From positions 454-64,453 of the forward strand of contig CAIVSN010000116.1 in NCBI GenBank assembly GCA_903908595.1: 64,000 nucleotides of DNA, given 5' to 3'. Positions 4,270 to 56,466 of the stretch are shown piece after piece. Origin of the DNA: an uncultured bacterium. Lineage in GTDB: Bacteria > Patescibacteriota > Gracilibacteria > BD1-5 > UBA2023. Position numbers and translations under genes: made by a program. The stretch's first letter is position 1. Each line of letters begins with the position of its first letter. The notes below the pieces were generated by a model, which worked only from the letters and a program-made list of their open reading frames with translations, searched no databases and was not told where the DNA came from.

Positions 4270-4305
4270 GGAAAAAAATGAGGTCGGTTACCGTATTATG
4301 ATGCT

Positions 4306-4400
4306 GAGGTTTGCCTTGGGAAGTCAGTTTACTTTCGAGGCAGAGGTTTGCCTTCCTTGGAAGTCAACTCGCCTTCTAGTCTGAGGCTTGCTTGGAAACG
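4306..4400. repeat. Three imperfect direct repeats, GAGG(T/C)TTGC..TTGG(G)AA, in the intergenic region upstream of the ferric-reductase fusion gene
   Basis: gaggtttgccttgggaagtca (4306-4326), gaggtttgccttccttggaagtca (4343-4366) and gaggcttgcttggaaacg (4384-4400), spaced roughly 37-41 nt apart. Confidence 0.5.
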
Positions 4401-17738: not shown

Positions 17739-18179
17739 CTATTTCGCCAAACCCTCCGAATGCCGCTTGAAATTCTCCAAGATGGCGCTCCAGCCCGCGA
17801 TCTGCATTTCGTGGGAATGGACGTCTTCCGCGTCGAAAATCTCCGTAACCCGTATCCCGTCGGGCGTTTCTTCGAAAACGACTTCCACTTCCCGGCCGGC
17901 CGGGAGGAAATATTCCTTCATCTCGCCCATCGTGTAGGAGACGCGTTTCATCGGCTCCACCAGGTCGTACCGGGCGGTGAAATCGAAGGAAGCGCTCCCG
18001 TCTTTCGCGGCGAACGTATTGCAAAACACGACGCCGACCCCGGGTTCGGGAGAGTCGGATTTCGGGCAGTGCCAATCGTCCGAGGCGAAGCACCAGCGGA
18101 CGATGTGTTCGCTCTTCCAGAAAGCGTCCCAAACGGTGGGAAGCGGAGCGTGCACCAGGGTAGATACGGTAAGTTTCAT
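17739..18179 (-). CDS. SRPBCC/AHSA1 (START-like) domain protein
   Basis: Intact 146-aa track ORF. MKLTVSTLVHAPLPTVWDAFW...GWSAILENFKRH is typical of Aha1/BPI-like SRPBCC proteins. Ends in TAG. Confidence 0.7.
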   Translation of the reverse strand: MKLTVSTLVHAPLPTVWDAFWKSEHIVRWCFASDDWHCPKSDSPEPGVGVVFCNTFAAKDGSASFDFTARYDLVEPMKRVSYTMGEMKEYFLPAGREVEVVFEETPDGIRVTEIFDAEDVHSHEMQIAGWSAILENFKRHSEGLAK

Positions 18180-18260
18180 AGGGAAAAAATAGGTGATGGA
18201 GCGTCGTTGTATTTTTTACGGAAGAAGCGAACCGGCGGATTGCCAATGGATTGGAGGCGA

Positions 18261-18605
18261 TTATTTTTTCTCTGCCGACGTTTCCCCGAAAATCATAGTA
18301 ACGATAGCGAGGACAATGGCAAATACGGCGGCTGACAAAAATCCGTCCAATACGAATCCCGGTACGATTTTTGCGACCAGCATCACCATGAGCACGTTGA
18401 TAACAAGGGAAACGAGCCCGAGCGTCAGGAGGTTCAGGGGAAGCGTCAGCAGCTTCAAAACAGGCGTGATGGTGGCGTTGACCACGGCGAGGACGACCGC
18501 GACGATAATCGCCGTCACGTACCCGTCCACGTGGGATCACGGGGTGAAATAGGAAGCGATGGCGATTGCCAGCGCGGAAATCAGAAGGTTCAAGATGATG
18601 GCCAT
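18261..18605 (-). CDS. Phage holin family IV / DUF360-type small membrane protein
   Basis: Track ORF 18261-18530 is joined across TGA 18537-18539 to ATG 18603-18605. MAIILNLLISALAIAIASYFTP[G]SHVDGYVTAIIVAVVLAVVNATITPVLKLLTLPLNLLTLGL matches the family, with the TGA falling on the conserved PG. Ends in TAA. Confidence 0.75.
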
Positions 18606-18778
18606 ATGGGGAAAATTAGGAATACGGCCTGACATTATACGCGTATGTGCGGGAATGGGTAAAGATAAGCCGGGGGGCGGGGGGATTTCATGATTTGATA
18701 TCATCAAATATAGCAAATACGGGAAAATTCCATACACTTCGCTTATGAATGGATTGTATTTTTTAAATTTTATAAGAT

Positions 18779-19324
18779 ATGTTCAACACGTTCTTTTCTT
18801 TTTTGATAAAGCCTACTGAAGTTACCAAGGAAATTTTATCTTTCGATAATAAAACGAAGGATATCGTTACGGTATCGATAGTCGTTCTTTACTTCATATC
18901 CTGACAGTTACTTGCCTATATGATGTTGCCGGAACTATATCTGCTCTGAATTTCTGCCTTGTCCGTTGTCACGGCATTTGCAATGTCATTTATCGGGTTT
19001 TACTCGTTCAATCTTGGAATGCAACTATTCGGGAAGGCAATTGGTGGGAAAGGTTCATTTAGGGATGTAAGCGTCGTGACGGCGTATTCGATGTTTATCT
19101 ACGTTATCTTGACCCCTCTGATTTCCATTGTCTCAAAGGTGCTTTGACTCGGGTTTATCGGAACTGCCAGTATGCTTATACCATTGGTCTGGTTCTTGAT
19201 AATATATTCGAAATCACTATCGCAAGCACAGCAATTTTCTGAAACCAAGGTATTGGTAAATGTGCTGGTTGTTGGTGGCATATTCTACTTTATCATTGCT
19301 GTTTTACCAAAATTAGGTCTTTAG
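18779..19324 (+). CDS. Yip1-like integral membrane protein, in an AT-rich segment
   Basis: ATG 18779. Frame-2 sequence including track ORF 18959-19147 is joined across TGA 18902, 18947 and 19145. Ends in TAG 19322-19324. Has five hydrophobic helices. Confidence 0.6.
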
Positions 19325-19458
19325 GGTAAACTTGTACTTGGGCTCTTTTCCCTCAGTGTCGATTCCGCTTTCCAAGCGGACTCTCGCTTCGGGAAACGCC
19401 TTGCGACAAGCTTGCCATTCCAGGCAAGCTTTCCCCGGCTCGCCGCTCCGCGCTCGCC

Positions 19459-19490
19459 GGTGTCGCTGCGGTTCGAGCCCCGCCAAACCC
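19459..19490 (+). pseudogene. Fragment copying the tRNA-Lys 3' portion (T-arm plus acceptor 3' strand), inverted relative to the gene
   Basis: ggtgtcgctgcggttcgagccccgccaaaccc compared with tRNA-Lys AGGTCGCGGGTTCGAGCCCCGCCAAACCC. One G is deleted from the T-stem. Confidence 0.7.
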
Positions 19491-19503
19491 GGCGTCCCGC
19501 GTG

Positions 19504-19530
19504 AAAAAACCCGCTTGCGCGGGTTTTTTT
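19504..19530. terminator. Bidirectional intrinsic terminator
   Basis: aaaaaacccgc-ttgc-gcgggttttttt, located between the Yip1-like gene (+) and the ankyrin gene (-). Confidence 0.75.
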
Positions 19531-19572
19531 GGAGTTCTGATGGTGGGTTACCCAACTCCGCTAAACATGTTT

Positions 19573-20793
19573 TTACCTCAATACCTGAAGCATCTTTTCT
19601 CTGAAAACATCGTTTTTAATTTGAGAAGCATAATCAATGGCCGATTGATCAAGCGAATCCATTAAATTTGGGTTTACTCAAAAATCTATTAATAACTTCG
19701 CCGTCCTGACTGCTTCTTCAGAAGCACTTGACTGTTCTTTTTTTGGTAAGGTATTAAAATTATGAACAAGATAATCATTAAGATAGAGACGTTCCTGAAT
19801 TTCTAAAATCAATGCAGTGCGTCCAAGATCATCTACTGTATTTGGATTTGCATCAATGCTTTTGAGGTAATCAAAATCATTTTTTGTTAATCCTCTTAGT
19901 CGATCAAACCATACGGGGGAATGGTATGATTCCTTATATGGATAACGGGCTGGTCCCCATATCGAAGCAAACAAAGTGATATTTACATCTTTAATGCCGA
20001 GGCATCTTCCTGATATCAGAAAGTACGACATATTCCCGCCATGCCTATCATTAAGAATGATTTGTTTGAGTTTTTGGCAACCGTGTGACCATTCTTGGGA
20101 ATTTGGAAACTGTCATATACATAGAGCATATTGGGAGTATGTTCCAGACAAACCACTATCGAGCGTATTGATTTTACCACACATATTGGAATCTTTATTT
20201 TTGATTGCTTCTTGTATTAATTGTAACCTTTTACACGAATCACTATAAACATACATGTTATCACAAGAAATCGGGTCATTTGAATAAATAGTTTTTGAGG
20301 TAATTTCTTCGAGTTTACACGAAGCATACATATGTGTATTGGGAGTATATATTGAGCAACTTGCATTTTGTTCTACAAAAGACTTATAATTTGCACCTTG
20401 CAAACAACCACTATACCAGCTGTTCCAAGTTGAGAGCATAGATTTTTCTTCTCCTTGAGATATTCATGCTAATGGTAGTTTGCAAAACATATCATTTCCT
20501 GTTACTTGTGCTAAGGAGCTTGAAAAGATTACCAAATTTTTCTGCCAAACAAATAAACTGCAGATTAGAATTGGAATTAGGAGTGCAAATTTTTTTATTG
20601 ATATTTTGGGCTCTAACTTTCGTGATTTTACAATTTTCTTAATCGATAGAAAAATACCAAAGATTACTATTGATATATGGGCATAGTAAACAAAACTGAC
20701 GAGCTTATACCAGATAAATAATTCAATCATATACATTCTGATTATCCGATAAGATTTATTTGCATTAAAACAAGTAAATACCATTCTCGGCAT
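19573..20793 (-). CDS. Membrane-anchored Cys-rich protein with C-terminal ankyrin repeats, in an AT-rich segment
   Basis: Same-frame track ORFs 20464-20793, 20113-20439 and 19678-20031 are joined by TGA 20464, 20113 and 19678. Ends in TAA 19573-19575. Ankyrin-like: DANPNTVDDLGRTALI and LLIDF[G]VNPNLMDSLDQSAIDYA. The start is uncertain; ATG 20736 is an alternative. Confidence 0.6.
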
Positions 20794-20887
20794 TTACTTG
20801 TTTTGTCTTTCGTTACTTTCTTTTATCAAAGCCAATCTTCTTCCCCTCACCGAGAGGAGGTAAAAAAGTTTGACGGTCTTGGTACAA

Positions 20888-20963
20888 TGGTGGGTTTGGC
20901 GGGGCTCGAACCCGCGACCTTGGCCTTAAAAGGGCCCTGCTCTACCTGCTGAGCTACAAACCC
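20888..20963 (-). tRNA. tRNA-Lys (anticodon UUU), CCA encoded
   Basis: Minus strand reads GGGTTTGTAGCTCAGCAGGTAGAGCAGGGCCCTTTTAAGGCCAAGGTCGCGGGTTCGAGCCCCGCCAAACCCACCA. The anticodon loop is CTTTTAA. Confidence 0.9.
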
Positions 20964-21066
20964 AAAAAAGTGGGTCTCCAATCCTTCTCATTTTCTACTT
21001 CGGGGGCATTGTAGACAAAGAACCCGGAAAGTCGAATTTATTTTGAAATTTTCGCCCCTTCCATTC

Positions 21067-21094
21067 CTTGCAAACCCCGGCATATATGATACTA
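21067..21094 (+). promoter_or_regulatory. Candidate promoter of the giant gene (TTGCAA-N16-TACTAT with an extended -10 TG)
   Basis: -35 TTGCAA 21067-21072 and -10 TACTAT 21089-21094, with TG at 21086-21087. It lies about 30 nt upstream of ATG 21125. Confidence 0.45.
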
Positions 21095-21124
21095 TGGCCC
21101 CTAGAAAGATATCCGATCCCTTCC

Positions 21125-24100
21125 ATGTCCGTATTTCCCAAACCAAGCAGGCTCAAAAAATGGGTTTCCTCACTCCTCATTTTTACCATGTTCGCGAGCC
21201 AGACGGTGCAATTCCCGTTGCTGGTTCCCAGGATCTTCGCGGAAGGCAGCGACGTTCCGAATTTGGTATCGATCATCGTCAGCGAGTCCGTCTTTACTGG
21301 CAACACGAAGGACAAAATTTCCCAATATTCCAAGGATATCCAGGCTTCGATGACCAATACCCGGGTCGTCATCGTGAACGTGCCCGACAACATCGCCCCG
21401 CACAGCATCGCGGCGCTCAATGAAAAACTCTACTACGAAGGCGACGGCGACGGGATTTCCCGGCTCGTGGGGACCGTCCTGATCGGGAAACTCCCGATTC
21501 CCGTGGTCCACAACGGAAGCAAGAGCTTTCTCAGCATCTATCCGTATACCGACTTCGACGAAAAGGTCTTCATGTTCGACGTGGAGAAGGGCTACTACGA
21601 GGCTGGAAGCGGACCCGTGGAGCATGACAGCCCAGAAATCTGGCACGGGGTCATCCAGCCGAATTCCGGGGATTCCGCCACCGACCGGGCCAAACTCGAA
21701 CAGTACCTCGACAAGACGCACGATTTCTATGCGAAGCAGGGGGTGTTCGCCAACATGAGCCAGACGCCCTACGTTTTCTATCTCGACATCACCCACGACC
21801 AGGAAGCCGCGAGCGCTTCCAATTGGAAGGCGTACAACCTCGGCCTCGAATACCTGGAAGATCTTACCTACAAGCGCTTCAACAAGCACCTGGCCAAAAC
21901 GCTGTACGACAAGTTCCAGGGCATGCAGGATTCCACGGCGGATCTGACTTCCGAGGAAAAAGCCGAGCTCGGGGCCGCTGGGGTGGACATTCCGCCGATG
22001 GCCGATTCCATGGATTTTTCCAGTTCCCCGGACATCCAGACCCGCACCGCCATCACCGAGGTAACGAAGCAGTTCTTCGAGATTTTCAACGAAAAATACC
22101 TCGGGGACATCCTCAAGTTCATCTACAACACGGGAAGATACGGCGACGGGAGGGATACCCGGGCCGATATCGCTCCGGTACTGGTATCCAAGCGCGACGA
22201 ATTCATGAAGCGGGTCATTAAGGACAGCAATACCGCGCTCGAAAACAGCATCGACCAGCTCGTGAAATCCGGCCTCGCGATCGATCTGGCCATTCCGACC
22301 GACGTCAAAATCACCAAAACCGGCTCGGGCGCTGACGCCAACAACCCCGTTCCGCCGATATACCGCAATTACTATTATGGGAAATTGGCGAGTTCCATTA
22401 CCAACGCGAAGGAGTGCTCCATCGTCCGGGGTTCTACGCTCCCGGTCGAAGCGAACCGGGGATACAATATCCTCAACGTCGAGCCGGATTTGCAGAAGCT
22501 TACCCAATATTCGACGCTGTGCTTCCCCGGAGGGCTTCCCGCGACGATGGACTGGTGGGGCGGCAACAGCCCGCTCAACGTGAAGACCGATTCGTTCACG
22601 GCGGCGGATTTGGCGATCTTGCAAAGCGCGACGGGCGGAACGGACCTCTCCGCCTACGAAGGCAAGCTCTCCACCAAGTTCGAGCTCAAGGGCAACGTCT
22701 ATAAGGATTACGTCATCCAGACCTTCGATCTCCTGGGGCAAAGCGAAATCTCGCGTACCGGAGCGCTCCGCGTCAATTCCCCGTCGGATTGTCTCGCCTC
22801 GAACTATATCGCGGATCCGTTCGTCGGAAAATCCGAGGATGGGATGTCATTTTCCCAATTCCAGCATCCGCAGACTACGGGGGGGACGCAGTTCGTCTGC
22901 GTGATGCGGGACAGCAAGGGGGTGCTCGGCCACAAGTTTTTCGTGCAATCCAGCACGACCCTTTTCGCGGACGCCATCGCCGACCGGATCAACCCGCCCC
23001 TCTGTACCGTCGTCAAAGTCAATCTGGTGGGAGGTTTTTCCAAGCAGTTCGGACGGCTGTGCGATGAAGAAGTACCGGTGGCGACCACGGGAAACGGAAC
23101 GGGAGAATCCTCCGGAACGGAAACGGTGACGACCGGGACGACCGAGGAGTACGACTTCAAAAAGATATCTTCCTGGATCGTCCACAAATCCCCCACGGAC
23201 GAAGAATACGGGGCCGCCGTCAAAGGCATGACCACTCCTTCCCTCGCGAGCGACGGGGACCGCTACATCGACTTCATGGGCCCTGCGGGAACCGTCCAAA
23301 AAATCGTCTATCCGAATTTTTTCCGGCTGAACAACCAGTCCTACGAGGCCGCGTTGGCAACGGCAGGAACCTGAGGCAGCACGTTTTTTGGCGATCTCGT
23401 GACCGTCGTGGACCACTCCCTCGCCTCGGCCGGCTGAGGCACCGTGGCCAACACTGGGGCCAGCCTGCTTTCCGGCAATATGCCCGACCTGACCATCGAT
23501 ATGGTCAAAGATTCCATCAAGGCGGTCCTCGATAAGAAAAGCGCCGAAATCAACGCCATTATCAACGCGCAGGATCCGGCGCTCCTCACCGGGGATCAGG
23601 CCGCGATCTACCAGCTCATGAATACCGGCGCCTATCCGGCCGCCAACGTCGATCTCTATACGATGGTCGCGAGCAGCGGGAACATGCTCACGACCCTGGC
23701 GGATACCATCCTCTGGTACAACCGCACCAACGCGACGAGCAAGTATTCGTTCATCCTCGAGAATTACCTCGACCGCGACGGGAACCGGGACTACCCGCTT
23801 TCCGGGCACCATTCCGATTATGAAATGGGATACATCGGCGGACCCGGCGACGCGCAGAACATGTACGTCAAGGTCGACCCAGAATCCAAAGGCACCCTGT
23901 CGAAAGACATTACCGACATCCAGGCCGACTACGGTTCCCTCGTAAACCTGCTGGACGCCGCGAACGTCGCCGAGTACAGTCCCGAAGATTCCCAATTCAA
24001 GTGCGGGCCGCCGGAGGGCGTGGTCATTTGGAAATGGCTTCCTGCCGTCTTCTGCTGGCTCGGGACGATTCTCCCGCCGACCATTTCGGCCGGATCCTGC

Positions 24101-27100
24101 GGACCGCAACTCGGCTCCGATACGGACAAGGGGCAAGACCGCGATTTTTTCACTTCGATTCCGGGCACGGACGGCAAGCTCGCCTGGCAGCAAGACCTCG
24201 ACCATAACGGAATCCTCGACGGATACGAGTGGGTCAAGGACGGGGAAATCAAGCTTGCCGCTTCTCTCAAGCGGATCGGATACCGCTCGGGCGCGGCGCT
24301 GACGGCCGATCTCACGAAGGACGGCCGGATTCTCGCCCACGATTCGTACAACCAGGTATTTTTCGACGTCAAGAAAATCACGCTGCTGAAGGGTCAGAAC
24401 GATCTCGAAGGCAATCCGGTGACTTCCGACAAGATCGTCTACGTCCGGGGAGGAACGGGAGCCGCCGGAAGCATCGAGACGCTCAAAAAATACGTTTTCT
24501 TCACGCCGATCGCGGTCCGGGCGGAGGCGGGAACGGCCACCTACGGCATCCAATCCATCGACCGGGACATCGATATCGATATCGTCGCCACCGTCGCTCC
24601 GAAAGACAAAAACGGAAACGTCGCCTTTTCCAAGGATTCCAATCTCATTACCCTCAAAGTCCGGGACGAAGCGCTCAAAATCGGTACGGAAATCCAGGAA
24701 ACCACCGGAACCGGATCCCGGGTCGATCCGACCTTCAAGGCGGGAGACGCGAGCAAAATCACCTTCAAGTTCACGGTATCCGGGAAAAATCCCGAAACGC
24801 CGACGGCCGCGAAATCGCCCATCAAGATCAAAATCCTCGACGACGTCGACGGAACGGAGCTTACGCCGAGGCCGGCGGATATCGGCAGCGACACGTTCAT
24901 TTATGCCGGAAACCTCCTGAAACAGGCCGGGAATTACCGGTTCGAATTCGTCGACGCGGAAGACCGGTACGGCACCGTCATGGTGAACGTCCTCCCGGGC
25001 GACCCATTCAAGATCGAAGCCGTAGCGGCCTCGAACATGTTCGTGAAAGGCCAGAAAAATATGGTCCTCGTAACCGTGAAGGACCGATTCGACAACTACG
25101 TCAAGGGGGACTTGCTCCAGGTCGCCGGCACCGTCGACGGGGGCGCGTATTTCACGGAAAACCACGATGCCGCCAATTCGAAAAGCACCGTCGAAGGCGT
25201 ATTGAGCTTCGAGATGAGCGCCGACGCCGGAAGCACGGGCAACAACACCCACAAATTGGATTTCAGCACCGTCGACAGCAAAGGCGCGACCATCAAGATG
25301 GCCACGCCGCTGACCGTCCAATCCATCGACTACGCCAAGATCCAGGTAAACGTCGCGAACCGCGGCAGCCTGGTGGCCGGAGGTTCCGGACAGACCGTCA
25401 CGCTCAAGATTACCGACAATCTCGGGCAGGTATTGACCGGGTTCAACGGGGTCGCCAGTCTGGATTTTCCGAAAAATTCCGGATTCTTCAGCACGCCGTT
25501 CGTCCAAATCACGAACGGGACCAATTCCGGCGCCCTGACCTTCACTCCGGGAACGGTCGCGATCCTCGATGCCAAAATCGACGTGCAGGTCCCCGGGATC
25601 GTCGACGTGGAAGGCGGAACGCTGAGCATTCTCCCGAACGTGCCGATGCGCGTGGGACTCCTCTCCGATACCGCCAAATTCGAAGCCAAGGTCGGGAATT
25701 CCGCCGGGATTACCGCGCAACTGTTCGACCGGTACGGCAACATCGCCTACAATCACCCGGCCGGAATGTCGGCGAATTTCACGATTCCGAGCGGTTACGG
25801 CAAGTACGGCAGCATCAGCGGGGGGAACGTGCCATTCGCGAACGGGGAAGCCAAGGTCCAAATCAATTCCAGCAGCAGTCCGGGCACCCTCTATTATATG
25901 GTGGAAGTCGCTCCCGGACTCGAAACGAATACCTTTACCATAGAAGGGGAAAATATCGACACGACCCCTCCGACGAAAACTTCCGTCACGATCAAGGGGT
26001 ATTCCAAAAACGTCGCCTACATCGAGAGCTACTACCTGTGGAACGCGGAAAAACTCGCGAAAACCAACTACAACGTCCTCTCCACCACCCTGCTCGGGGC
26101 CGACTACGGAAACGTCACCGTTCCGAACTATCTCGCGGGCGAACTGATTTTCAATTCCGGCAGCTCGTCGATGGCGGTCACGACGCTCCTGGGCAACGCC
26201 GAAAAGCGGGACGAAATCGTCCAGATGACCCCGGGAGGAAAAATCGTCCTCGACCGGGGCCAGACGGCCGAAGTCCAAATCGGTTCCAACAAGAACCGGA
26301 CGACGCTCGATATTTTCGACCCGTTCAAACGGGAAAATATCGGAAGGTTCTATCTCAATACCAGTCCGGCGACGCCGACGTTCGCATGCGCCACGGACGA
26401 AGCGGACGAAATCGACGCCTGCGACTTCCAGGGCAAGGAATCCTATATGGTCCTCAAGGGATTGGGCGAGGCCGAAGTGACGAAGATCGGCAACCGGCTC
26501 AGCCTCGGTTTCGACGGCATTCCCGTCTTCGAAATTTCTCCGGACGGAACGATCACCAAGTATCCGAACGTCACCGTGGAAGCGGACGGGGAAGAAAGCA
26601 GGAATCTCCTTTCGCTCTCCATCGTCAGCAGCGGCATCAAAATCGGACGGCTCGGCATCAAGTGGGACGCTCCGGAGATTATCGTCAGCTCCCCTTCGAC
26701 CCTCGACGCAGCGCTCGCGAGCCACCCCGGCACCATCGTCTACGAGGGCATTTCTCCCCGATACGGCATCAAACAGGACAACCTGGGGAATACTTCCGCG
26801 GGAGACAAGGGCCTCAAGATTTTCGCCCAGAGCGAAGACGTGGAGACGGACCGGGATCTCATAGGATCCTCCGGCAAGCTGGGATACGAGGAATACGCCA
26901 AAAACAAGGGGATCGGATTCGGCGACGGCAACAACACCCAACTCGAATTCGCGAGCCAATCCACCGTCGGGCAATCCGCCAAATCCTTCGCGACCTACTC
27001 CGAAATCGTCATCGGCGACCCGGTCGCGAGGCTTCCGGAAATCCTCTCTCCCCAGAACTTCGACCGAACCCTGGGAAAAAGGCTCATGAGCAGCGCCGGC

Positions 27101-30100
27101 GGAATCATCGAATCCTATTCGACGATCGACTACAACCGGGACAACATGCAGGACATCGTCGTCTTCTACCAGGACGGCAAGGTCGAGCTCCTGCAAAACT
27201 ACCGGTGAACCTACAAGAGCCTCGGCTATCTCCTCTACGTCTTCGACGCGGGCAAGGAACGCAAGGGCGCGGGGGATTTCAACGGCGACGGCTACGGGGA
27301 CTTGGTCATGGTGGACCAGGACGGCAAACTCATCGTCATCCAAAACCGAAAGGGCAAATTCGTCCGCGTACCCGCAAAAATCATCGACCAAGCCGGTGCC
27401 GAAGCCAAAATCGGCGGATCCGTCATGCAGCTGGAAATATTCGACATGGACAAGGACGGCAAAACCGACATCGTCATTTCCGACGATTCCGGAGAATTGA
27501 ACATCCTCTACGGCGGCGGCACTCCGGACGACGTCGTTTTCACCAAAAAATTGCTCGACGACGGCATCGGAATCAAGCTGGGAACCGGGGAATTCACGAA
27601 CGGCGGGGCGATCCGTTTCGACGGCATCAAGGAAATGACCCCGTTCACCCAGACCGGGTACGTCATGGAAACCGAGGCTTCCAGCGCGGACGCCGACGTC
27701 GAAACACTCAGCCTTCCGGACCAAATCCGGCTCTTGGACAGCAAAATCTACTACCAGCAAACCGTCTACGAGGAAGTTCAGAACCCGGCGGAGGCCCAGA
27801 ATATCCGGCTGCTCAGCGGAGTGGGCGACGATCCGGACAATCCCGGCGTCCCTAACCAGGCGCTCGCCGATGAGATCAGCCAGACGATTCTCGATTTGCA
27901 GAACCAGGCGGCGAGCGGCAGCATCGACACGAGCGAACTCACGAACGCGACGATCGAAAAGCAGCGCTCGTTCCTCCGATCCGAATTCGCGGACGGAAAA
28001 GACATAAAAATCGCAAAAAAATATACCGATAGCAACGGCGGGTTCCTTCAGGCGGGGGATCCGATCCTGGTAACGATCGACGTGACCAATGCCGGAAGCG
28101 CTCCCCTTTCCGGAGTCATCTATCTCGACAGTTACGAAAAATCCGTGTTCCAGCCGGGAGAAAACGATTCGTATGCCATTTACGGCGGGTCGGGCAGCAT
28201 GATGGGAACCGGGGCTTTCGCCGCCTTCACGGGAAGCACGTTCTTCGACGAACTGGCAACGGTCGTGGACCATTCATTGTCCGCGGCCTCGGGCGGCTGA
28301 TCGGCCGGAAGCGCCGCCGCCACGGGATCTGCCCAAGACGGGCTCATTGGCACCGGCAGCCTCGACCAGCTCACCGAAGGGGAATTCGACTTCCAATTCG
28401 GAACGCTGACCATCCCCGTGGGCCAGAAAATCACCATCAAATACCTCCTCAAGGCCAATGCTATCTCCGTCGGGAAATTCCACGTGGGCGTACTCGAAAC
28501 CGATGACATATACGGGGACGTCAGCATGAACGCGAACTCGGTCTGCTGAGACCAGGAATGGCTTTGGAAATCCATCGTACCGACTCCGAGAACGTATTCG
28601 GCAAGAACCCTCAGGGATATCCCGGAGAGCGGCGACGTAGCCGGTACCCAAAAGGGCAAGTTCACCGATTTCAACGGCAACGGATCCCCGGACTATATCG
28701 ACCTCCTTTCCGGAACGGGCGGTAACGATTCCATGGCGTCCTCGCTCTGGGATCCAACGCGACACGGGATCCTGGTTTTCCGCGAAACCTCGACCGATAC
28801 CGGGCTGGACGGAACGAATTTCGAAGTCGGACGGGTCGTCTCCAATTCCGAAACGGGGTACGTCCAACTCAACCCCGTATCCGTAAAGGAAGACGTTCCC
28901 GTTCTCGCGACGCCGGCGCTCGCCAACGGGACGATCAACGGAAACGAACTCGGCGCCGGAAGCGTCAGCAACGTCCTGACCGGAAGCGTTACCAATACGC
29001 TGATCACGACCGCCTGCGGACAACCGGGCACTTCCGTTTCGGATCTCCGGCTCACGGGATACCGGCAGATCTATCATCCGAGCGTCATGTCGGACATTAC
29101 GGGAAACCTCTCGCTCGTCGCCGTCGGAACGTCGAAAACCCTCGACGCTTCTGGAAGCGTCATCGGTACGGGCGACTGCATGATCGACATCAATTCGACG
29201 TCGAATCCGGCATGGGACGGTACCAAGGTCACCGGGCTCGGCTGGAAACTCCTCACCAAGGGAACCTTCCAGCACTTCAGCCTCGGGGGCACGCAATCCA
29301 ACCTCATCGCCGAGTCCGTCGGAATTCCCGACAGCCACGAACCGCTCGGAAGCGATTTGTTCACGTTCGAAAGCGATGGGTCGCTCATCGGGGGAACCGT
29401 CGACATCGGGGGCATGTCGGACGAAAACATCGACAAGGTCAACGGGGCCATCGATACCATCGTCCAGGGCCTCGGGTGCGGATTCGGAGGAGGTAGCTGC
29501 CTCTCCATGCCGATGAACTGGGCCCCTCTCGCCCCGGGTTCCGCTCCGGTCGTCATGGGATTCCCCATCGGGGGACTCAGTCCGTCGACGGGTTTCCCGG
29601 TATTCAGCAGCCTCACGGGCATCCAGACGATGTGCGGCAAATCGCCTTGCTGCATACCGAGCGTTTTTCCCATAAGCCCCCTCGCCTACGTACCCGGACC
29701 GGCTTGCGGATCCCCGAGCGCCGGAGGATACCTGGGCACCTGGGCGCCAACCAACACGTTCCGCTTCTATATCACCCCGACCATCACGGGAGCCGTGGGA
29801 ATCGCCGCGTGTTTCGGAGGTACGGCCATGGTTACCGGACGAATACCGCCACAGGCCGTATCGCCGCTCGTGCCGGGAGGCAACTGCGTCGTCGCGGCCA
29901 AGCCGCTCCTCGGCTGCAAGGACGACGGTTCCGACGGGACGTTCGAGGACTTGTGAAGCACCGATAACGGAACCCTCAATGCCGGATCCTGCAAGAACCA
30001 ATCCGACGAGGAAACCGTTTCCGCCGAAGACCAGGAAAAAATCCGAGCCTTCGTCCGCGGCGACAATACCTTCGTGAGCGATATCGTCAAAAATGCCGCG

Positions 30101-33100
30101 GGCCGCGGAAGCATGATTATTCCGAACGGTCCCCTGCTCTCCATCTGAGGCCGGGGCGGAAGCGGAGCCGGCAGCTTCGAGCTGGCCATCGATCTCAAGA
30201 GCATCAAGAACTTCGATATCGGCATCATCACCAAAATCAGCAACCAGCGGGTTTCCGCGTTCCCGGATTTCATCATGGACTGGGTCAACCGCCAATTGGA
30301 AGAAGTCGCCAACAAACTCACGAGCCTCCCGACGCTGTATATCATCAAGCCGGATTTCCGAGGCGTCATCGACGGCAACTGGAACGGGTTCACGGAGAAG
30401 CTCGGGAAAGCCTACGGTACCGGAAAGAAAAACGGCAGTCCGGTACTCGGCAACGAAAACGCCGGCCGGAGCATTTCCGGCGTCAAGTCAGCCTACGAAT
30501 TCATGTCCCGGCTCCCCCTTATCAAATTCGAGAAAACGACCCTGGACATCTCCTATCCGGACATCGGCCAGGAAGACCTCAACAAGGCCCTCAAGAATCT
30601 CAAGAATACCAAGGCCCAATGGGAGCGGGAGATTTCGAGCAAGAAAGCCCTGTACGCGGGCACGTTGACCGCTACCGGCATGGACGCGAGCATTATCGTC
30701 CGGTCGGAATGACTTATCAGCAGCATCAACCAGAACATCCGAACGATAGAGGAATACAAGAAATTCCCGGAAAAACTCGCGAAGTACCTTACCTGGAAGG
30801 AACGGTATGCGGCGCAATTGCTCTGCAATATCACGGCAATCCAAAACATGCTGGACAGTTTCATTACCAAGAATGCCATCCGCTTCAAGGCCTGGGTCGA
30901 GTTCTTCGAACTGCTCAAGAACATCCTCAAGGGCTGGCAGCTCATCCCGGACCTCTTCTACAAGAACGAGGCCGAATGCGGGGTGTGCCGCAACGAGCGC
31001 TACGACGCGAAGCATTTCATGTTCAAGCTCATCAAGGCCATCATACCGCCGCTTCCGATCATCAAGTTCCCGAAGTGGCCGGACATCATCTTGGACCTCC
31101 ACAACGTTCGGCTCGGCCTCCGCATCGCCATGCCGGAATTCGTGTTCCACCCGACCCCGATCGTCCTTCCGAGATTCCCGAATCTCGCGTTGCCGACGCT
31201 TCCGAAACTGGGCATCGGTTTGCCGAGCATTCCGACGCTTCCGAGCCTGCCGCCGTTACCGGAATTGCCGGATATTCCGTCGCTTCCGCTCATCACCCTT
31301 CCGGAACTCCCGCCGCCGCCGACCATCCCGAAGCTCTTCGGAGCCATCAAATTCACGTTGAACATCCTCAAGATCATCGCGAAGGTCCTCTGTATCATGC
31401 GTTCGAATCCGTTCGTGCCGGAATGGCGCGCCGGAGACCAGATTGCCCAGATTACGGAACGGCAGGGCAAAATGAAGCTCGACTTCCTCAATATCGAATT
31501 CCCGCAGTTCAACGCGAGCTTCGTCGATGCCATCAAGGTGACGACCTACGTGAATTTCGAGTTCCAGATCGACTTCCTCCTCGAAATGGCCAAAGCCACG
31601 TTCGAACCGATCAACGCGTTCACCTCGAACCTCTCGAACATCGTTCCGAACGCGACCAAGGACATCCTTCCGAACAAAGTGGACCTCCGCGGGCTCAATC
31701 CGGGCAACCAGAAAATCCAAATCGGTCCGACCGGAATGGAAGGCAAAAACCCGTTCGTCAAGCAATACGCCCAAACGTTGGCCCAAGCATTCGTTACGAC
31801 GATCAAGCAAGGACAATTCTACGCGAACGAATCGGCGGCCTACGAGGAAATACGGGAGAATCTCGCCGACGAGCTCGCCCATACCCACGCGACCCCGGGA
31901 ACCCCGGGATTCGCCATCCTCGAAGAAATGCGGGAAGGACTCCGGATTCGCGGCGATGCCGAAGCCGAAGCCCTCGCGACCGAACTCCGAAGGGACAACG
32001 ACGAAAAGTTCAACCTCGCGAACGGTTTCGTCAAATCGGAGATGCACGAAATCACGGAACTCCAGGCCCAACTCCACCTCGTGCAAACCGGCAAGAAGGA
32101 CCTCTCGGATATTTTCGGGACCCGGAAAAGCGGGGGAAATGCCGAATTGACGGATTCCGCGAACCCGTACAGCACCGAATCGGAACTTCCAGATTTCACC
32201 AAATTCAACGAACGGGCCTACGTCGCCTATTCCGAACTCCTCGCACCGAAGCCGGACGACGAACTCGTGACCATGGGAAAAAATCTCAAGGACAGCATGC
32301 AAGCCTATTCCGCGGAAGCCGAGAGGAAGTCCGCCGAATACTGAGCCGGAACTGACATTGCCGGCGGAGGCGAACTCGCGAATTACGAATACCGCGGCAT
32401 TTATACCAAGGACAACGGTCGGCAGATCCGGCTCTTCGATTACACCAACGACCTCATGGGAGACGAGAGAGCCGTCCAGGTCGACCGGCTCGGAAACGGG
32501 GCGATAGAATATATCTACCTGAGCGGGGACGGATTGTATCTCAAGACCAAACTGGGGAATTCCGGAACCTCGGCGACGAGCGGAAGCGCTTCCACGGGCG
32601 GAACCGGTTTCTTCGACGAACTCGGCACCGTCGTGGACAATTCCCTGTCCATGGCTACGGGAGGAACTCCGACTGCCAACACCGGAGGTGGGACTTCGGG
32701 CAGCGTCACGACCAGCATTCCCGTCTACCGGCTTTCCGGCATCATCGATCTTCCGAATTCCGAAACGTTGCGGCCGACCGCGCCGAACCGTTTCGTGGAA
32801 AGATTCGTGGCTTCCGGGGAAATCAACTTCTCGTTCCGGCCGGCCGACTTGGTCAACGACACGATTTTTCGAATGGAATTCTACGATTATATCGATCGCT
32901 TCGACCTGCGGATGAGTGGGAAAGACTGGAAGGATATCGCGCCGACCACCCGGGTTTCCTACGTGGATCTCGTCCCGGAATTCACGGGCGAAACCGTGAC
33001 GGACGCTTCCAATACCGGCATCATCCTCCAAAAACCCTATGCGAAATACTTACAGGGAACCGGGAACGGATTCATCAGCGGGGCGGACTACCGCACCCTC

Positions 33101-34630
33101 TGAGCCGGCTCGAAGATTCAGGTTGCCGCGAGCAAATCGATCTATGCTGACGGAGGCGGAGCGAAAATCGCGTACAAAATCGCCGACAGCGCGGCTTCCG
33201 TTACGGGCAGCACGGTGACCATACCGAATTCCGGAGAACTCAAATTCTTGGACAACATGGACATGGAAGTCCTGAACGGAAACGTCATCCTCATTAACGA
33301 GAGTTCGAGCCCCGTACGGCGGCCACAGGATTTTCAGAAACTGAACGGGCTTCCCGTCATCCTGGGTCAGAAAATAGAAATTCCCGCGACGACGGCCCGG
33401 CTCAATATCGAGTATTACAACGGCGCATCGCTCCGCATGGACGGGCCGAGCCTCTATGAAAGCCACGAGCTCGGAGCGAAATCCGACGAATATGACGTGT
33501 CGCTCCGCCAGGATAACGGCTGGTACTACGCCAGGCTCGAAAGCGTTTCGCCGAGCCCCCGGACCAGTACGCGGATCACGCTGCTTTCGCCACAAATGGA
33601 AGCCGACAAGGAAGCTCCGCTCATCGAGGTCGCGGGAGGATTCCGGGCGCCGGTCTATCTCGACCGTGCCATAGACTTACGCGAACAGATTACGGACGTT
33701 TCCGGCATCAGCGACGTGTTTATCGACACGGATCTCGCGGCCGATTCCGACCGGGATGGGCAAATGGACAACGACCGGGATTCCGACGCGGCCGGATCGA
33801 TATTCAGAAAGGGCAGCTCCAATCTCGAATGGATCGTCAAAGCCCAGGATCGACTGTTCGAGAAGAAAATCAAAATCTGGGCCGGGGACGAAAGCGGAAA
33901 TTTGGCAGGAACAGAGACGGATCTCCGCATCTATGCCCCGGTTCCGAATATTTCGACCCAATCGGGAACCACGATTTTCGGAAACCTCGACGAGTCGTTG
34001 GACGGCGAACCGACGGATATCGTCCGGTACCGCAACGGCAAGATTTCCCCTATCGGCAACGCGGCGCTTACCCAGAGCGGCGGGGAATTCCTCAATACCT
34101 TCGGCACGAATACCGGAATAGCCATCAGATGACCGTCGGGCGAATTGGCAAAAATCAACGAAAACACCGGAAAACTCACCCTGAGCGGCAGCGAGAACGA
34201 ATTCGTCGTCCTCCCGGCCAACGCCGACGTCCCGATGCGGATCGAAATCCAGAAGAAATCGGATCATTCCGTCCTCTACTCGCAATCCGTAGCACTGGGA
34301 AGCGCCGGGAAGATAGAACCCGTGTCCAGCCTCGCGGAAGCTCTCGCCAAAGCGAAATGAGGCCTCGGCGTACGTCTCGATGCCGGATGGAATTTCGTCC
34401 GGAACCCGGGCAATAGCCCGTCGCTTCCAGGAGGCATATTCGTCACGGACGCGGACATGAAACCGGTGTTCGGTATCGCCAAGGATGGCAACGTATACTT
34501 CCTGAAATCCTCTGGACTCAGCCTGAAATACGGAACCGAACAGGACTACTTCGTCATCGAAGTCCGCGACGCGGACCATCTCGTCGGAACCCTCTATTAC
34601 GTACTCGATGCCGAATATGTCATCAAATAG
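21125..34630 (+). CDS. Giant secreted surface protein (~4,500 aa) with FG-GAP/VCBS-like, Ig-like and DUF11/CARDB-like segments and a Pro-rich region
   Basis: Nine frame-2 track ORFs (21068-23374, 23444-27208, 27302-28300, 28733-29956, 30275-30712, 30818-32344, 32456-33103, 33215-34132, 34145-34360) are separated only by 12 in-frame TGAs. The first TAA/TAG in frame is TAG 34628-34630. Signal-like MSVFPKPSRLKKWVSSLLIFTMFASQ. FG-GAP-like GDFNGDGYGDLVMVDQDGKL and DMDKDGKTDIVISDDSGEL. Pro-rich LPSLPPLPELPDIPSLP. Confidence 0.85.
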
Positions 34631-35243
34631 CCTCCTTATCGCTTCGGTGACCGATCCGGGACACTGGTACCTTTTCGACGACCGGGACGTTTGTACGGCC
34701 CACGAAACCCATTCCATCGCCGGCAAGGAATTCGACCGCTTCCTCGATACTGCGGTCGGATTCCTGAAGGGCCGAAATCTCGGATTCGCGGATATTTCGA
34801 CCATTTACCTAGTCACCGGACCGGCTTCTTTCACGGGGGGTCGCATCATGACGCTCACGCTCGGTTCCCTCGCGCTCGCCTACCCGAATATCCGGCTCGT
34901 CGGAATTACCCTCTTCGAATACTGGGCGATGGCGGGAAACGCCTACCCGATGGCCATCGAGGCGAACCGCGAAGAATTGGCCATCCAGCGGGGGCCGGAA
35001 TCGGAAATCGAGCTCGTCTCCAAAGCGGAAGCCGAGATCATTCCCTTCCGCACCTGGTATTCCCGCATATGAAAGTTGCCGAAGTGGGAAAATATGATAC
35101 AATTCGACGAACGAATATCTTCTTTACCCAACGCCCTGAAACGGAAACCCCCTACTCGGACCCTGAATCCGCTGTATATCAAAAAGCCGAACATTACCAT
35201 CTCACCGACTTCCCATGATACCAGTAGACCTTCACATCAGTAA
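34608..35243 (+). CDS. tsaB: TsaB/YeaZ-like protein (tRNA t6A biosynthesis)
   Basis: Track ORF 34608-35072 reads through TGA 35070-35072 to TAA 35241-35243 (211 aa). The block IYLVTGPASFTGGRIMTLTLGSLA resembles the TsaB GPGSFTGLRIG motif. It overlaps the end of the giant gene. Confidence 0.6.
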
Positions 35244-35793
35244 CCTGCGACCGGGGGAACGGATCGAATACGTGCTTCACCGCCACTGGATTACCCTCTT
35301 CTATACGGGCGGATATATCTTCGTCCTCGTAATGGTCACCATACTGATGCTGGCGTTCCACGATTCGTTGTCCGCCTTCCTTCCTTGAACGTTCCTTTCG
35401 CTCCTGCTTCTCGCGTTCATGATGTTTTTCACCCTGTTCATCTACGTCTACTGGGTGGACAACGAACTGGACTTCTACATCATTACCAACGAGCGGATCA
35501 TCGCTATAGAACAGCTGTCCTTCCTCAACCGGACCGTCAGGGAATGCTCGCTGGAACAGGTTCAGGAAGTCAACGGGTTCGCCCGGGGACTGCTCGAAAA
35601 CATCCTCAACTTCGGGTGCGTCACGATTCGGACGGCTTCGGACATCTCCGAATTCAACATGGAACTCGCGCCGGAACCGCTCGAAAACGCCCGGATCATC
35701 CTCAATATCATCCAGGAATACAAGGGGACGCACCGCGAACGCATGCGGGATTTCGTCCGTGACGAAAAGCCGAAGGCGCCGGAAATACCTTAG
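35215..35793 (+). CDS. Membrane protein with a bacterial PH (bPH_2/YdbS-like) domain
   Basis: ATG 35215. Joins track ORF 35419-35793 across one TGA. Has two TM helices, followed by DFYIITNERIIAIEQLSFLNRTVRECSLEQVQEV. Ends in TAG. Confidence 0.65.
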
Positions 35794-35835: not shown

Positions 35836-36465
35836 ATGTACGGAACATTCGTCAAAGGACTTTCCAAAAAAAACGACAAATACGGGTTCGTAAACGAAAA
35901 CGAAGTGCGGATCGCCACCGGCGTGACCTTCGTTTTTGGGCTCTTTTCGCTCTTCCTCGTGCTGCTCAAATGAGAATTCACGATTCCGCTCGTCCTGCTT
36001 TCGCTCGTATGGCTCGACTTCGTCGTCAAGGTGTTCGTTTCCCCGGAATACTCGATTTTTGGAAGGTTCGTCCGGCTGTTCCTCAAAAAAGAACCCTACT
36101 GGATCGGATCCGTCCAGAAGCGGTTCGCCTGGTCGATCGGACTGGTGATATCCACGATTGCCGTGCTGTGCCTGATATTCCAATCCGGGCTGTTCGTCGA
36201 CGTGGCGCCATTTTTCCAAACCGCGTACGAATATATCCAAGCGCAGCTGAAGCAGGCGACGTTCATCAAGCACCCAAACCAGCTGATGTATACGCCGCTC
36301 AATCCCCCGATCCTACTCTGTATCCTCTGCCTCGTGTTCATGTGGTTCGAATCCGTCGTCGGCTTTTGCGTCGGGTGCGCCATCTATGCCTGGGGAGTGA
36401 GGAAAAAATTCTGGAAAGCATACGAAGGACAGAACTGCACGGGCGGGATGTGCCGACTGGACTAA
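35836..36465 (+). CDS. DUF4395 family membrane protein
   Basis: ATG 35836. Joins track ORF 36031-36465 across one TGA. NENEVRIATGVTFVFGLFSL...CVGCAIY is typical of DUF4395. Ends in TAA. Confidence 0.6.
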
Positions 36466-47624: not shown

Positions 47625-48437
47625 ATGAACACGCCACCATTTTCCCTCGCGCTCGGCGGATGAGCCGCCCGGGGACTCGCCCATGTCGGAATCATACGGT
47701 ATCTCGAAGAACACGGGCTCCGCGCGGAAGAAGTCTCCGGAACGAGCATGGGATCCATCATCGCGGCGCTCTACGCCTATTGAAAGACGTCCGAAGAAAT
47801 GCGGAATATCTGTGCCGATATCAAGTTCGTCAAGCTGATCGATCTCGATCTCAAGAAATGACTCCTCAAGGGGAACAAGATCGAAAAGCTTCTCGAATCC
47901 ATATTCTGAAACGCGAAGATCGAGGATTTGAAAATGCCCTTGAAAATCGTTTCCGCCAATATCGACACCGGAGAAAAACGCGTTTTCGAAACAGGTCCGG
48001 TCGTCGACGCCATCCGTTCTTCCATCAGCATTCCCGGAATCATCATGCCGAACGAACTCGGCCTCGAACGGCTGGTTGACGGGGGCATCGTCAACAATCT
48101 CCCCGTGGAAATCCTCAGGGGCAAAAACGTCATCGCCGTTTCGGTCTTACGGGACGTCTCCCGTCCAATCGACATGAAACTCAAAGTCCTCGGGTTCGAG
48201 ATGAACCAATCCATTTTCTGAATCGGGTATCAGATCTTGCAGAAAACCATCGACATCATGGTAAACCAGAACGAAAAAAGGTCGTTGGAATCGGAAAAGC
48301 ATATCGTCCTGCTCGAACCGAAATTCCCGGGAATCGATTATTACGAATTCCAGAAGTACGACGAAATCATCGGCATCGGATACGCTACGGCCATGAACGC
48401 CGGGCTGATTGGCCGATTATCCGAAAAATTCGAATAA
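47625..48437 (+). CDS. Patatin-like phospholipase
   Basis: ATG 47625. Frame-0 track ORFs 47928-48221 and 48237-48437 are joined with upstream sequence across 5 TGAs. Motifs: LALGG[TGA]AARG (GGGxRG), GTSMGS (GxSxG), DGGIVNNLP (DGG). Ends in TAA. Confidence 0.85.
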
Positions 48438-56315: not shown

Positions 56316-56401
56316 GGAAACGGCTTGGATTACTTGGCAGTAAGTATATGCCTGATAACGGGATATGCCAAATGAATTCTCCCGCTTGTGCCAAACGGGA
56401 G

Positions 56402-56441
56402 AAAAAACGAAACATTCCCCGGCATTGTCCGGGGAATGTTC
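56402..56441 (-). terminator. Intrinsic terminator after the 56467-57468 gene
   Basis: 12-bp stem aacattccccgg / ccggggaatgtt, followed on the minus strand by tcgtttttt. Confidence 0.65.
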
Positions 56442-56466
56442 ATAGAAAATCCGAAGCGGGTACCTA

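Follow-up and report, generated by a model that had tools for sequence, protein, structure and literature searches.

A giant gene of a Gracilibacteria-type bacterium, read with TGA as glycine, belongs to an unnamed collinear family of predicted surface proteins

Introduction

An open frame of some 13.5 kb that is crossed by 12 TGA codons raises the question of whether it is one gene or several and, if it is one, what the bacterium makes with it. The frame lies on the forward strand, at 21125-34630, of a 64,000-nucleotide stretch of contig CAIVSN010000116.1 from an uncultured member of the Gracilibacteria. This whole stretch is referred to here as the window, and in an earlier, sequence-only reading of it the frame had been described as a single gene for a giant surface protein. 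We know of no account of how Gracilibacteria and their relatives attach to or exploit other cells, nor of any in culture; among the sister Absconditabacteria there are predators that have been cultured. Giant surface proteins carrying integrin/FG-GAP, DUF11 and immunoglobulin (Ig)-like modules are already known from candidate phyla radiation (CPR) bacteria, and orthologues of the protein considered here have been deposited as hypothetical proteins. In Vampirococcus lugosii, one of the Absconditabacteria, giant membrane or surface proteins, the longest of 4,163 amino acids (aa), contain DUF11 and integrin domains and have been proposed to act in host recognition and attachment (PMC8080830). A 'VCBS repeat' protein has also been detected in the metaproteome of Gracilibacteria from Wallender Born groundwater, and such a role has been put forward for it too (PMC11452946).

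Results

A single gene read with genetic code 25

The stretch 21125-34630 is one gene of a Gracilibacteria-type CPR bacterium, in which TGA is read as glycine. From the ATG at 21125, a start that is supported by the N-termini of the orthologues, the frame continues through 4,501 sense codons to its first TAA or TAG, the TAG at 34628-34630. All 12 in-frame TGAs are exactly where the sequence-only reading had placed them and, as it had also stated, reading of the frame shows no TAA or TAG before 34628.

21125-34630, forward strand: giant open reading frame (ORF), 4,501 codons plus TAG stop, 12 in-frame TGAs read as glycine (code 25), supported by orthologues
In-frame TGAs, forward strand: 23372, 23435, 27206, 28298, 28547, 29954, 30146, 30710, 32342, 33101, 34130 and 34358

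Given the frequency of TAA plus TAG in the window (0.008 per position), an open frame of this kind has a probability of about 2e-16. The terminal stop is the one TAA or TAG of the coding frame in this region, compared with 19 and 12 in the other two forward frames. The guanine plus cytosine (GC) content at codon positions 1, 2 and 3 is 0.545, 0.426 and 0.758, which identifies the forward strand as the coding strand, and the third-position value (GC3, 0.76) matches that of the EF-P and ProRS genes, clear housekeeping genes of the same window. The predicted product of 4,501 aa has a mass of 484 kDa and an isoelectric point of 4.8, and its gene takes up about a fifth of the window, in agreement with the earlier estimate. 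A frame on the reverse strand at 21101-31150, free of TAA and TAG for 3,349 codons and with 4 TGAs, was rejected as a gene, its first-position GC of 0.77 mirroring the GC3-rich sense codons. Gene callers that work from ORFs and treat TGA as sense could be misled by this antisense frame.

The lineage of the window uses genetic code 25, as Gracilibacteria and Absconditabacteria do. The window has a GC content of 54% and the standard code breaks nearly all of its genes. In the sigma-70 gene (59839-60873, reverse strand) three of the four in-frame TGAs fall opposite conserved glycines when the product is aligned with RpoS/RpoD, in motifs that include DRPVxTD and RFGLFx, and in a patatin-like gene (47625-48437) one TGA falls within the GGxAARG motif; since TGA coincides with conserved glycines in both, it is assigned to glycine, as in translation table 25. 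The giant gene behaves in the same way. TGAs swap with GGN codons among its orthologues, 19 of the 27 TGAs in orthologue L001 are at positions where both other aligned sequences have glycine, and of the seven TGA columns of the window alignable among 53 orthologues, four have glycine as their commonest residue (in up to 47 of the 53, the background being 7.4%). Across the same 53 sequences conservation extends to both sides of every TGA in the window.

It would seem exceedingly improbable that the frame is not one gene, whether because the TGAs terminate translation to give several proteins or because it is a pseudogene or an assembly artefact. Gene callers using code 11 do cut the gene into at least nine ORFs and such fragments are found in public collections, for example the 407-aa P0061, but the housekeeping genes of the window demonstrate code 25, the exchange of TGA for GGN and the conservation across every TGA do not fit with termination, and in orthologues the frame runs uninterrupted for about 13 kb where GC is as low as 20-25% and TGAs number 200-300. 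Misassembly across internal repeats, a concern raised with the original description, is not an issue, because the longest internal DNA repeat of the gene, and the sole long one, is only 65 nucleotides (nt) in three copies of 69-75% identity, too diverged for such an error. P0061 itself, a code-11 fragment from a contig of ENA ERZ1426765/JGI, is identical to 28733-29956 of the window, and the spacing from it to the next fragment on that contig is the same as in the window. The single ORF of about 13.5 kb can therefore be retained, given the TGAs at conserved glycines in the sigma factor, the TGA/GGN exchange and full-length collinear orthologues in at least 56 genomes.

A full-length collinear family

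Judged from the alignments, Gracilibacteria throughout have a giant, collinear protein in single copy, and the giant gene encodes the orthologue of it in the window. With one genome scanned per GTDB species, relatives were confirmed in 89 genomes, including the complete genome CP042461.1, the labels being Gracilibacteria, 'Peribacteria' or Patescibacteria only. Complete, TAA/TAG-bounded orthologous ORFs were obtained at 56 loci, a lower bound as these are the ones for which the whole frame fits within the fetched DNA. They have 3,140-4,548 codons (median about 4,260) and 2-297 in-frame TGAs, in genomes of 20-59% GC, and do not reflect chance, because 13 kb without TAA or TAG cannot arise in this way at 20-25% GC. 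The gene is present once per complete locus examined and is carried by nearly all of the Gracilibacteria genomes examined. Of individual orthologues, L001, on the 1.27-Mb chromosome OY970170.1 (45% GC), has a frame of 4,361 codons with 27 TGAs, and L003 (51% GC) one of at least 4,579 codons with 9 TGAs. Identity to the window protein over the full length, from MAFFT alignments with 4,200-4,400 aligned positions, is 73% for L006, 70% for L003, 50% for L001 and 49% for L009. Gracilibacteria proteins deposited as hypothetical, such as MDD2487531.1 (P0065, 4,224 aa) and the CP042461.1 orthologue, are collinear with the window protein throughout at 40-73% identity and share with it the signal peptide, N-terminal domain, repeats, FG-GAP region, Gly/Pro/Cys block, core and C-terminal region. 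The window copy differs in the addition of three cassettes with the motif FFDELxTVVDxSL, and a segment at aa ~2550-2700 is found in a minority of the orthologues.

The family extends beyond these orthologues. A profile of the trimmed core alignment, used in an exhaustive HMMER search, gave 667 cluster representatives (50% identity clusters) at E <= 1e-3, with 360 at E <= 1e-30; many of the matching proteins are full-length at 4,000-4,640 aa and a second group has 4,700-6,066 aa. A hidden Markov model (HMM) of 54 orthologues, in window coordinates, matches distant relatives collinearly from the N-terminal domain to the C-terminal region, over aa 60-740, the repeats and FG-GAP region (1,200-2,180), the Gly/Pro/Cys block (2,720-2,930), the core (3,040-3,900) and the C-terminal region (4,000-4,490). 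The distant relatives, of 3,600-6,066 aa and one of them labelled Peregrinibacteria, are standard-code genes. They include MBI2464194.1 (labelled Candidatus Peregrinibacteria, P0162, 4,699 aa), P0183, P0195, P0171 and P0139, which are collinear with the window protein and have the same FG-GAP and Ig-like modules, but differ from it in their code, in their length and in one or two C-terminal S-layer homology (SLH) domains and TSP3 repeats that lie beyond the part aligned to the C-terminus of the window protein. Pfam matches to Glyco_hydro2_C5 (an Ig-like sandwich), Invasin_D3 (below the cutoff), DUF11 and FecR are likewise seen in these relatives without a counterpart in the window protein, the FecR match of P0162 being located between stretches aligned to window aa 3042-3937 and 4124-4366. 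The core signatures of the family, AFPDF.MDW..RQ.EE, C.VCRNER.D, FPKWPDI.LDLH, LP.LPPPP and F.PEWRAGD.IAQ.TERQ, are all present at aa 3045-3450 of the window protein.

On these comparisons the window protein is a member of an unnamed, full-length collinear family that comprises Gracilibacteria proteins and standard-code relatives labelled Peregrinibacteria. The view that no family matches the architecture as a whole thus holds for named families; what had been missed is this unnamed one, of 667 clusters by the core profile, in which the relatives tested are collinear from end to end. Annotations within it range from 'hypothetical protein [Candidatus Gracilibacteria bacterium]' and 'uncharacterized repeat protein (TIGR01451 family)' (JGI, P0122 and P0123) to 'S-layer homology domain-containing protein [Candidatus Peregrinibacteria bacterium]'. 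In the searchable literature we found neither an experimental study of any member nor an account of one collinear family of about 4,300 aa across Gracilibacteria and standard-code relatives with an unassigned conserved core. A 744-aa query (aa 2757-3500) retrieved 20 relatives among 5.8 billion clustered proteins, all of them unannotated fragments. Most public records of the family (P0001-P0064) are unannotated code-11 fragments of 200-2,000 aa.

Architecture of the predicted protein

The following features, all on the forward strand, were distinguished along the frame.

21125-21241, aa 1-39: predicted signal peptide with a basic n-region (KPSRLKKW), a hydrophobic h-region and IFA/EG; from sequence, an AlphaFold2 (AF2) helix at aa 7-27 and orthologue N-termini
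21257-23344, aa ~45-740: conserved N-terminal domain, no family assigned, collinear in distant relatives
23345-23485: cassette 1, G/S/T/A-rich, core motif FFGDLVTVVDHSL, with the TGAs 23372 and 23435
24842-25984, aa ~1240-1620: tandem repeats of ~110 aa, from hhalign, probably Ig-like beta-sandwich
26822-27664, aa ~1900-2180: FG-GAP/integrin-alpha-like region, Pfam FG-GAP_3 at aa 2051-2118 (nt 27275-27478)
27992-28504, aa ~2290-2460: DUF11/CARDB-like segment, from sequence pattern, split by cassette 2
28187-28339: cassette 2, motif FFDELATVVDHSL, with TGA 28298
28742-29284, aa ~2540-2720: segment of the window subclade, ~150-190 aa (SSLWDP..GILVFRE..GYVQLNPVS..GLGWKLLTK)
29465-29929, aa 2781-2935: uncharged Gly/Pro/Cys-rich block (CGFGGGSC...NWAPLAPG...TPTITG...CFGG...PGGNC), from composition
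30212-31624, aa ~3030-3500: family-defining core with AFPDFIMDW..RQLEE, long helices, CGVC, the FPKWPDIILDLHN hairpin, polyproline, a Lys-rich helix and NPFVPEWRAGDQIAQITERQG
32567-32695: cassette 3, motif FFDELGTVVDNSL, in the window only among the sequences compared
32732-34627, aa ~3870-4501: C-terminal region, collinear across the family, beta-rich

The N-terminal segment that had been called signal-like does have the expected character, with an alanine at position -1 of the predicted signal peptide (Ala39) that is nearly invariant, being kept in at least 85-90% of homologues. No internal transmembrane segment is seen in the window protein, just weak hydrophobic peaks. An exported, surface location, as had been suggested, is well supported by inference from the conserved signal peptide, the FG-GAP and Ig-like modules and the SLH domains of distant family members. 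The AF2 model of the N-terminal domain (20 homologues) is confident only for an alpha/beta subdomain at aa ~45-200. Foldseek comparison of the domain with the PDB gave generic flavodoxin-like folds only, at a best E of 8.5e-3, and searches of Pfam, NCBIfam, PHROGs and PDB profiles gave no match to it. Identity as a peptidase C25/caspase-like domain was rejected on the flavodoxin-like character of the Foldseek matches (E >= 8.5e-3) and the lack of a Pfam match among the 20 homologues; a conserved WH(G) is present, and no candidate catalytic cysteine was found past the VFY.D strand when the sequence was read by eye.

The tandem repeats of ~110 aa are probably Ig-like beta-sandwich domains. In hhalign comparisons of sub-alignments of the 54 orthologues they were matched with probabilities of 97, 94, 90 and 89%, and P0162 and P0183 have Invasin_D3 and Glyco_hydro2_C5 matches at positions collinear with them, the Invasin_D3 match of P0183 reaching 27.2 bits, which is under the cutoff of 33. 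The repeats of the window protein itself have no Pfam match, including to Big or Invasin, and the earlier designation as Ig-like consequently draws on hhalign and on the collinear homologues. The same is true of the DUF11/CARDB-like segment, for which P0183 has a DUF11 match at the collinear position (25.9 bits, cutoff 24.6), while in the window protein there is a pattern only and no DUF11 match in Pfam.

For the FG-GAP/VCBS-like repeats the evidence is direct. FG-GAP_3 (PF13517) is the sole Pfam match above threshold in the window protein (E 8.1e-9, 36.4 bits, cutoff 26.9) and scores 37.9-46.8 bits in orthologues. The region contains the calcium-binding-type DxDxDG motifs DFNGDGYGD and DMDKDGKTD, and coincides with DNA repeat family D6, with a spacing of 45-49 aa; three to four repeat units can be recognised, compared with seven for a complete beta-propeller. 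FG-GAP_3 with calcium-binding DxDxDG loops is common to the window protein and the FG-GAP/VCBS repeat adhesins, and NCBI names homologue P0052 'VCBS repeat-containing protein', but the repeats make up less than 7% of the window protein and the remainder, including the best-conserved parts, is unrelated to those adhesins.

A conserved block and core without recognisable relatives

The best-conserved region of the family is the core, in which the mean fraction of the majority residue per column is 0.7-0.76 across the 54 orthologues, and the second best is the Gly/Pro/Cys block, which is also matched in distant relatives. The Cys/Gly-rich block was correctly recognised from the sequence; aa 2801-2900 contain no acidic and 2 basic residues with 16 glycines, 15 prolines and 5 cysteines. 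The core contains a CxxC motif (CGVC, nt 30977-30988), an amphipathic Lys-rich helix and, at nt 31157-31330, a polyproline LPxLP stretch that corresponds to the Pro-rich stretch reported previously. AF2 was applied to the TGA-free N-terminal piece of the window protein and to the orthologue piece P0001. For P0001 (44 rows) it gave helices of 25-72 residues and a beta-hairpin at a predicted local distance difference test (pLDDT) score of 70-90; the polyproline stretch was without a confident model, as was the Gly/Pro/Cys block, where confidence was low.

The N-terminal domain, the Gly/Pro/Cys block and the core have no match in Pfam, NCBIfam, PHROGs, the PDB or BFVD. With a core model that is of low confidence outside the helices, Foldseek found no similar fold (PDB E > 3, BFVD E >= 0.16). 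The core profile matched PDB sequences only at E >= 0.2, with HA2 at E = 1.6, and profile searches of PDB sequences with four alignments gave nothing below E = 0.19. Pfam searches with every member of the N-terminal and core alignments returned noise only, in which we include a match to CoV_S2 at E = 0.043, as did NCBIfam and PHROGs searches with seven TGA-free pieces. Identity of the core as a class I viral fusion or pore-forming protein was rejected, there being no fold or sequence similarity by Foldseek against the PDB and BFVD or by PDB profiles.

A predatory lifestyle has been described in the sister Absconditabacteria (PMC8080830), and one could envisage a contact-dependent device for attack on, or fusion with, the host membrane, in which the block inserts while the helices, CxxC and polyproline hinge drive a conformational change. 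Such a device would be analogous in function to fusion proteins or pore-forming translocons and would serve the 'vampire-like' feeding of the sister lineage. It would explain why an uncharged, moderately hydrophobic and highly conserved block lies beside confidently predicted helices and a hairpin, block and helices together being the most conserved parts, which suggests a mechanical core. A membrane-active role nevertheless appears improbable. Foldseek (PDB/BFVD), PDB profiles and Pfam revealed no fusion or pore-forming protein that resembles the window protein in structure or sequence, the block is Pro/Gly-rich rather than strongly hydrophobic, its Kyte-Doolittle average never exceeding 1.5, and it is shared by the standard-code relatives, at least one of them labelled Peregrinibacteria, which to our knowledge are not known predators.

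SLH domains, LPXTG motifs and RTX repeats are all lacking from the C-terminal region of the window protein. SLH (PF00395) is unmatched in the window protein at E <= 1 and in close orthologues at E <= 0.1, and is confined to the standard-code relatives. There are no LPXTG motifs anywhere in the window protein and no C-terminal hydrophobic segment, nor are there GGxGxD motifs, by pattern search, or Pfam RTX matches. Weak PKD matches occur at positions of homologues that are collinear with the region. The giant adhesins of diderm bacteria, namely those of the type I-secreted RTX/Bap type such as LapA and SiiE and the intimin/invasin type, are also very large, acidic and of extracellular type, with Ig-like repeats and calcium-binding motifs. 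In contrast to these, the window protein lacks RTX nonapeptides and a C-terminal type I signal, no N-terminal outer-membrane beta-barrel anchor domain was found in it, and it is mostly non-repetitive, collinearly conserved and equipped with a predicted Sec signal peptide.

Cassettes and a clade-specific segment

The three in-frame cassettes are rich in Gly, Ser and Thr, 43-51 aa in length, and each contains FF(D/G)(E/D)LxTVVD(H/N)SL, the repeat of 65 nt being their shared DNA core. They hold 3 of the 12 TGAs of the gene and are positioned where other orthologues have short loops. Cassettes 1 and 2 are present in L003; cassette 1 is missing in L006, L008, L009 and L012, and all three are missing in L006, the closest relative. 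FFDELxTVVDxSL was found neither elsewhere in the window nor in 53 other orthologues, and two metagenome pattern scans gave 0 matches and 6 unrelated matches. Strain-level in-frame indels in very large extracellular proteins have been noted in Peribacter (PMC4736985). The segment at aa ~2540-2720 occurs in the window subclade only (L003, L006, L008, L009 and L012) and, since over 80% of the 54 orthologues have a gap there, it would seem to be a clade-specific inserted domain.

Flexible cassettes with a conserved motif, set between conserved blocks, might suggest a polyprotein-like precursor that is cut after export into several mature surface proteins, perhaps at the cassettes or at other linkers, and giant surface proteins of other bacteria are known to be processed. 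This is very improbable here. The cassettes cannot be a processing signal for the family, because L006 and the 53 other orthologues are without them, and Pfam searches found no protease domain or known autoproteolytic motif.

Genomic context

The surroundings of the giant gene do not bear out two details of the sequence-only reading. The tRNA-Lys gene that it was said to follow directly is on the opposite strand, and of the good promoter match that was claimed there is little to be seen, as no forward-strand site upstream passes a sigma-70-like promoter scan and the candidate TTGCAA-16-TACTAT (21068-21095) agrees at just 8 of 12 positions by eye.

20888-20963, reverse strand: tRNA-Lys(UUU), from ARAGORN, divergent from the giant gene
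35215-35793, forward strand: bPH_2 membrane-protein gene, downstream of the giant gene
35836-36465, forward strand: gene for a DUF4395 protein, after the bPH_2 gene

The bPH_2 gene is in the same place in 14 close relatives and is the sole recurrent neighbour; across 54 loci there is no family-wide conserved partner, and assorted housekeeping genes are found elsewhere. In two standard-code relatives, at L086 (19662-22641) and L093 (15610-19613), the giant gene is followed by what appears as a small secreted-protein operon, three to four tightly packed genes for small proteins with signal peptides. Two of these are homologous between both loci, none has a Pfam match, and the window has no homologue of them. 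L086 also has a prepilin (N_methyl) gene upstream of the giant gene, at 640-1158, to which nothing near the giant gene of the window corresponds.

Beside the tRNA-Lys gene, in a GC-poor patch at ~18000-21000, a reverse-strand gene (19573-20793) encodes a Cys-rich protein of 406 aa whose C-terminal part has ankyrin repeats (Pfam Ank_4). The gene has a GC content of 0.34 and a GC3 of 0.28, the GC3 of its neighbours being 0.62-0.79, and it looks like a foreign insertion. Further away, 2878-4269 (reverse strand, 2 in-frame TGAs) encodes a tripartite protein in which Pfam recognises a ferric-reductase-like transmembrane domain, rubredoxin and an FAD/NAD-binding reductase. The same unusual architecture is present in Vamp_33_45, a proposed membrane redox device in Absconditabacteria (PMC8080830). 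At 54387-57365 (reverse strand) a long TAA/TAG-bounded frame opens with an extremely Arg/Pro-rich translation that is probably non-coding, and within it there is a lipoprotein-like ORF of 642 aa (MRKIFHYAVAAAFVFALSSCGQ...) without a Pfam match.

Discussion

The giant protein is reasonably likely to be an exported element of the cell envelope or surface, large, at once structural and adhesive, and plausibly involved in host contact. A cleavable N-terminal signal peptide would direct it through the Sec pathway, most likely to become part of the envelope or surface. From its N- to its C-terminus it would then present the N-terminal domain, a stalk of Ig-like repeats of ~110 aa, the FG-GAP region, with its putative calcium sites, the DUF11-like segment, the Gly/Pro/Cys block of ~150 aa, the helical core of ~500 aa and the beta-rich C-terminus. 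The repeat and FG-GAP modules may reach outward and bind partners, plausibly on a host cell, with the Gly/Pro/Cys block and helical core mediating assembly or attachment at the organism's own envelope. The giant proteins of V. lugosii would be a close parallel. They come from a sister lineage that also uses code 25, are of similar size and have DUF11 and integrin (FG-GAP) domains, a likeness drawn from the published description alone, in which the domains are listed over the ten longest proteins and not for one protein (PMC8080830).

Several observations weigh against this assignment. Sec export, the envelope or surface location and the role in host contact are what we infer from the sequence, and no recognised retention signal, whether SLH domain, LPXTG motif, transmembrane anchor or any other, is present in the window protein. 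Synteny over the 54 loci offers no conserved operon partner that hints at function. Both AF2 models have a mean pLDDT of ~57, so that the structural negatives are weak. Genome 25_26 of the Wallender Born study (PMC11452946) carries the orthologue L031, but from the supplementary text the 'VCBS' protein of the metaproteome could not be tied to it. Finally, host-specific adhesins normally vary fast, and a constant length, strict collinearity and a highly conserved core are not what they usually show. Taken with presence in all complete loci and 70-76% identity in the core, these features resemble those of a constrained envelope machine more than those of an adhesin that evolves fast. Because length and core argue in this way against a simple fast-evolving adhesin, there is room for a role as an envelope scaffold or, less probably, as a membrane-active device.

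A scaffold role would make the protein a housekeeping element of envelope architecture rather than a host adhesin, either an S-layer-like or wall scaffold or a surface structure for cell shape or division, self-assembling and with the repeats as spacers. Its occurrence once per complete locus, at a nearly constant length (median ~4,260 codons) and in strictly collinear form from 20 to 59% GC, would be expected of such an element, as would the 70-76% conservation of the core and codon usage like that of core genes, and the SLH domains of the distant relatives are typical of S-layer and S-layer-associated proteins. We nonetheless regard it as distinctly the less likely possibility. The Gracilibacteria form has no SLH domains, modules of the FG-GAP, Ig-like and DUF11 kinds typify binding proteins, and the lineage-specific cassettes and loop indels suggest variation at a surface. 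Moreover, a monomer of 484 kDa far exceeds the classical S-layer subunits.

Returning to the envelope or surface element with a plausible part in host contact, a bolder proposal can be made, more tentatively still, and we consider it rather unlikely. The Gly/Pro/Cys block and the CxxC-polyproline core would together form an undescribed envelope or host-contact machine, ancestral to the Gracilibacteria and their standard-code relatives and probably to the Absconditabacteria.

In practice, gene callers that use the standard code shred the giant gene into at least nine 'hypothetical proteins'; analyses of protein families that start from those calls miss the gene, and the family is largely invisible to surveys that rely on such gene calls. 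As a predicted exported protein of ~480 kDa, near-constant in length and order and present in all complete loci across 20-59% GC, it is a concrete and testable candidate for the core surface structure of the lineage, in which the most conserved ~650 residues resemble nothing known. Were the proposed machine to prove real, it could, for example, be the structure that allows these episymbionts or predators to fasten onto their hosts or to breach them, and the giant protein would be a central, universally conserved component of their lifestyle and not one adhesin among many.

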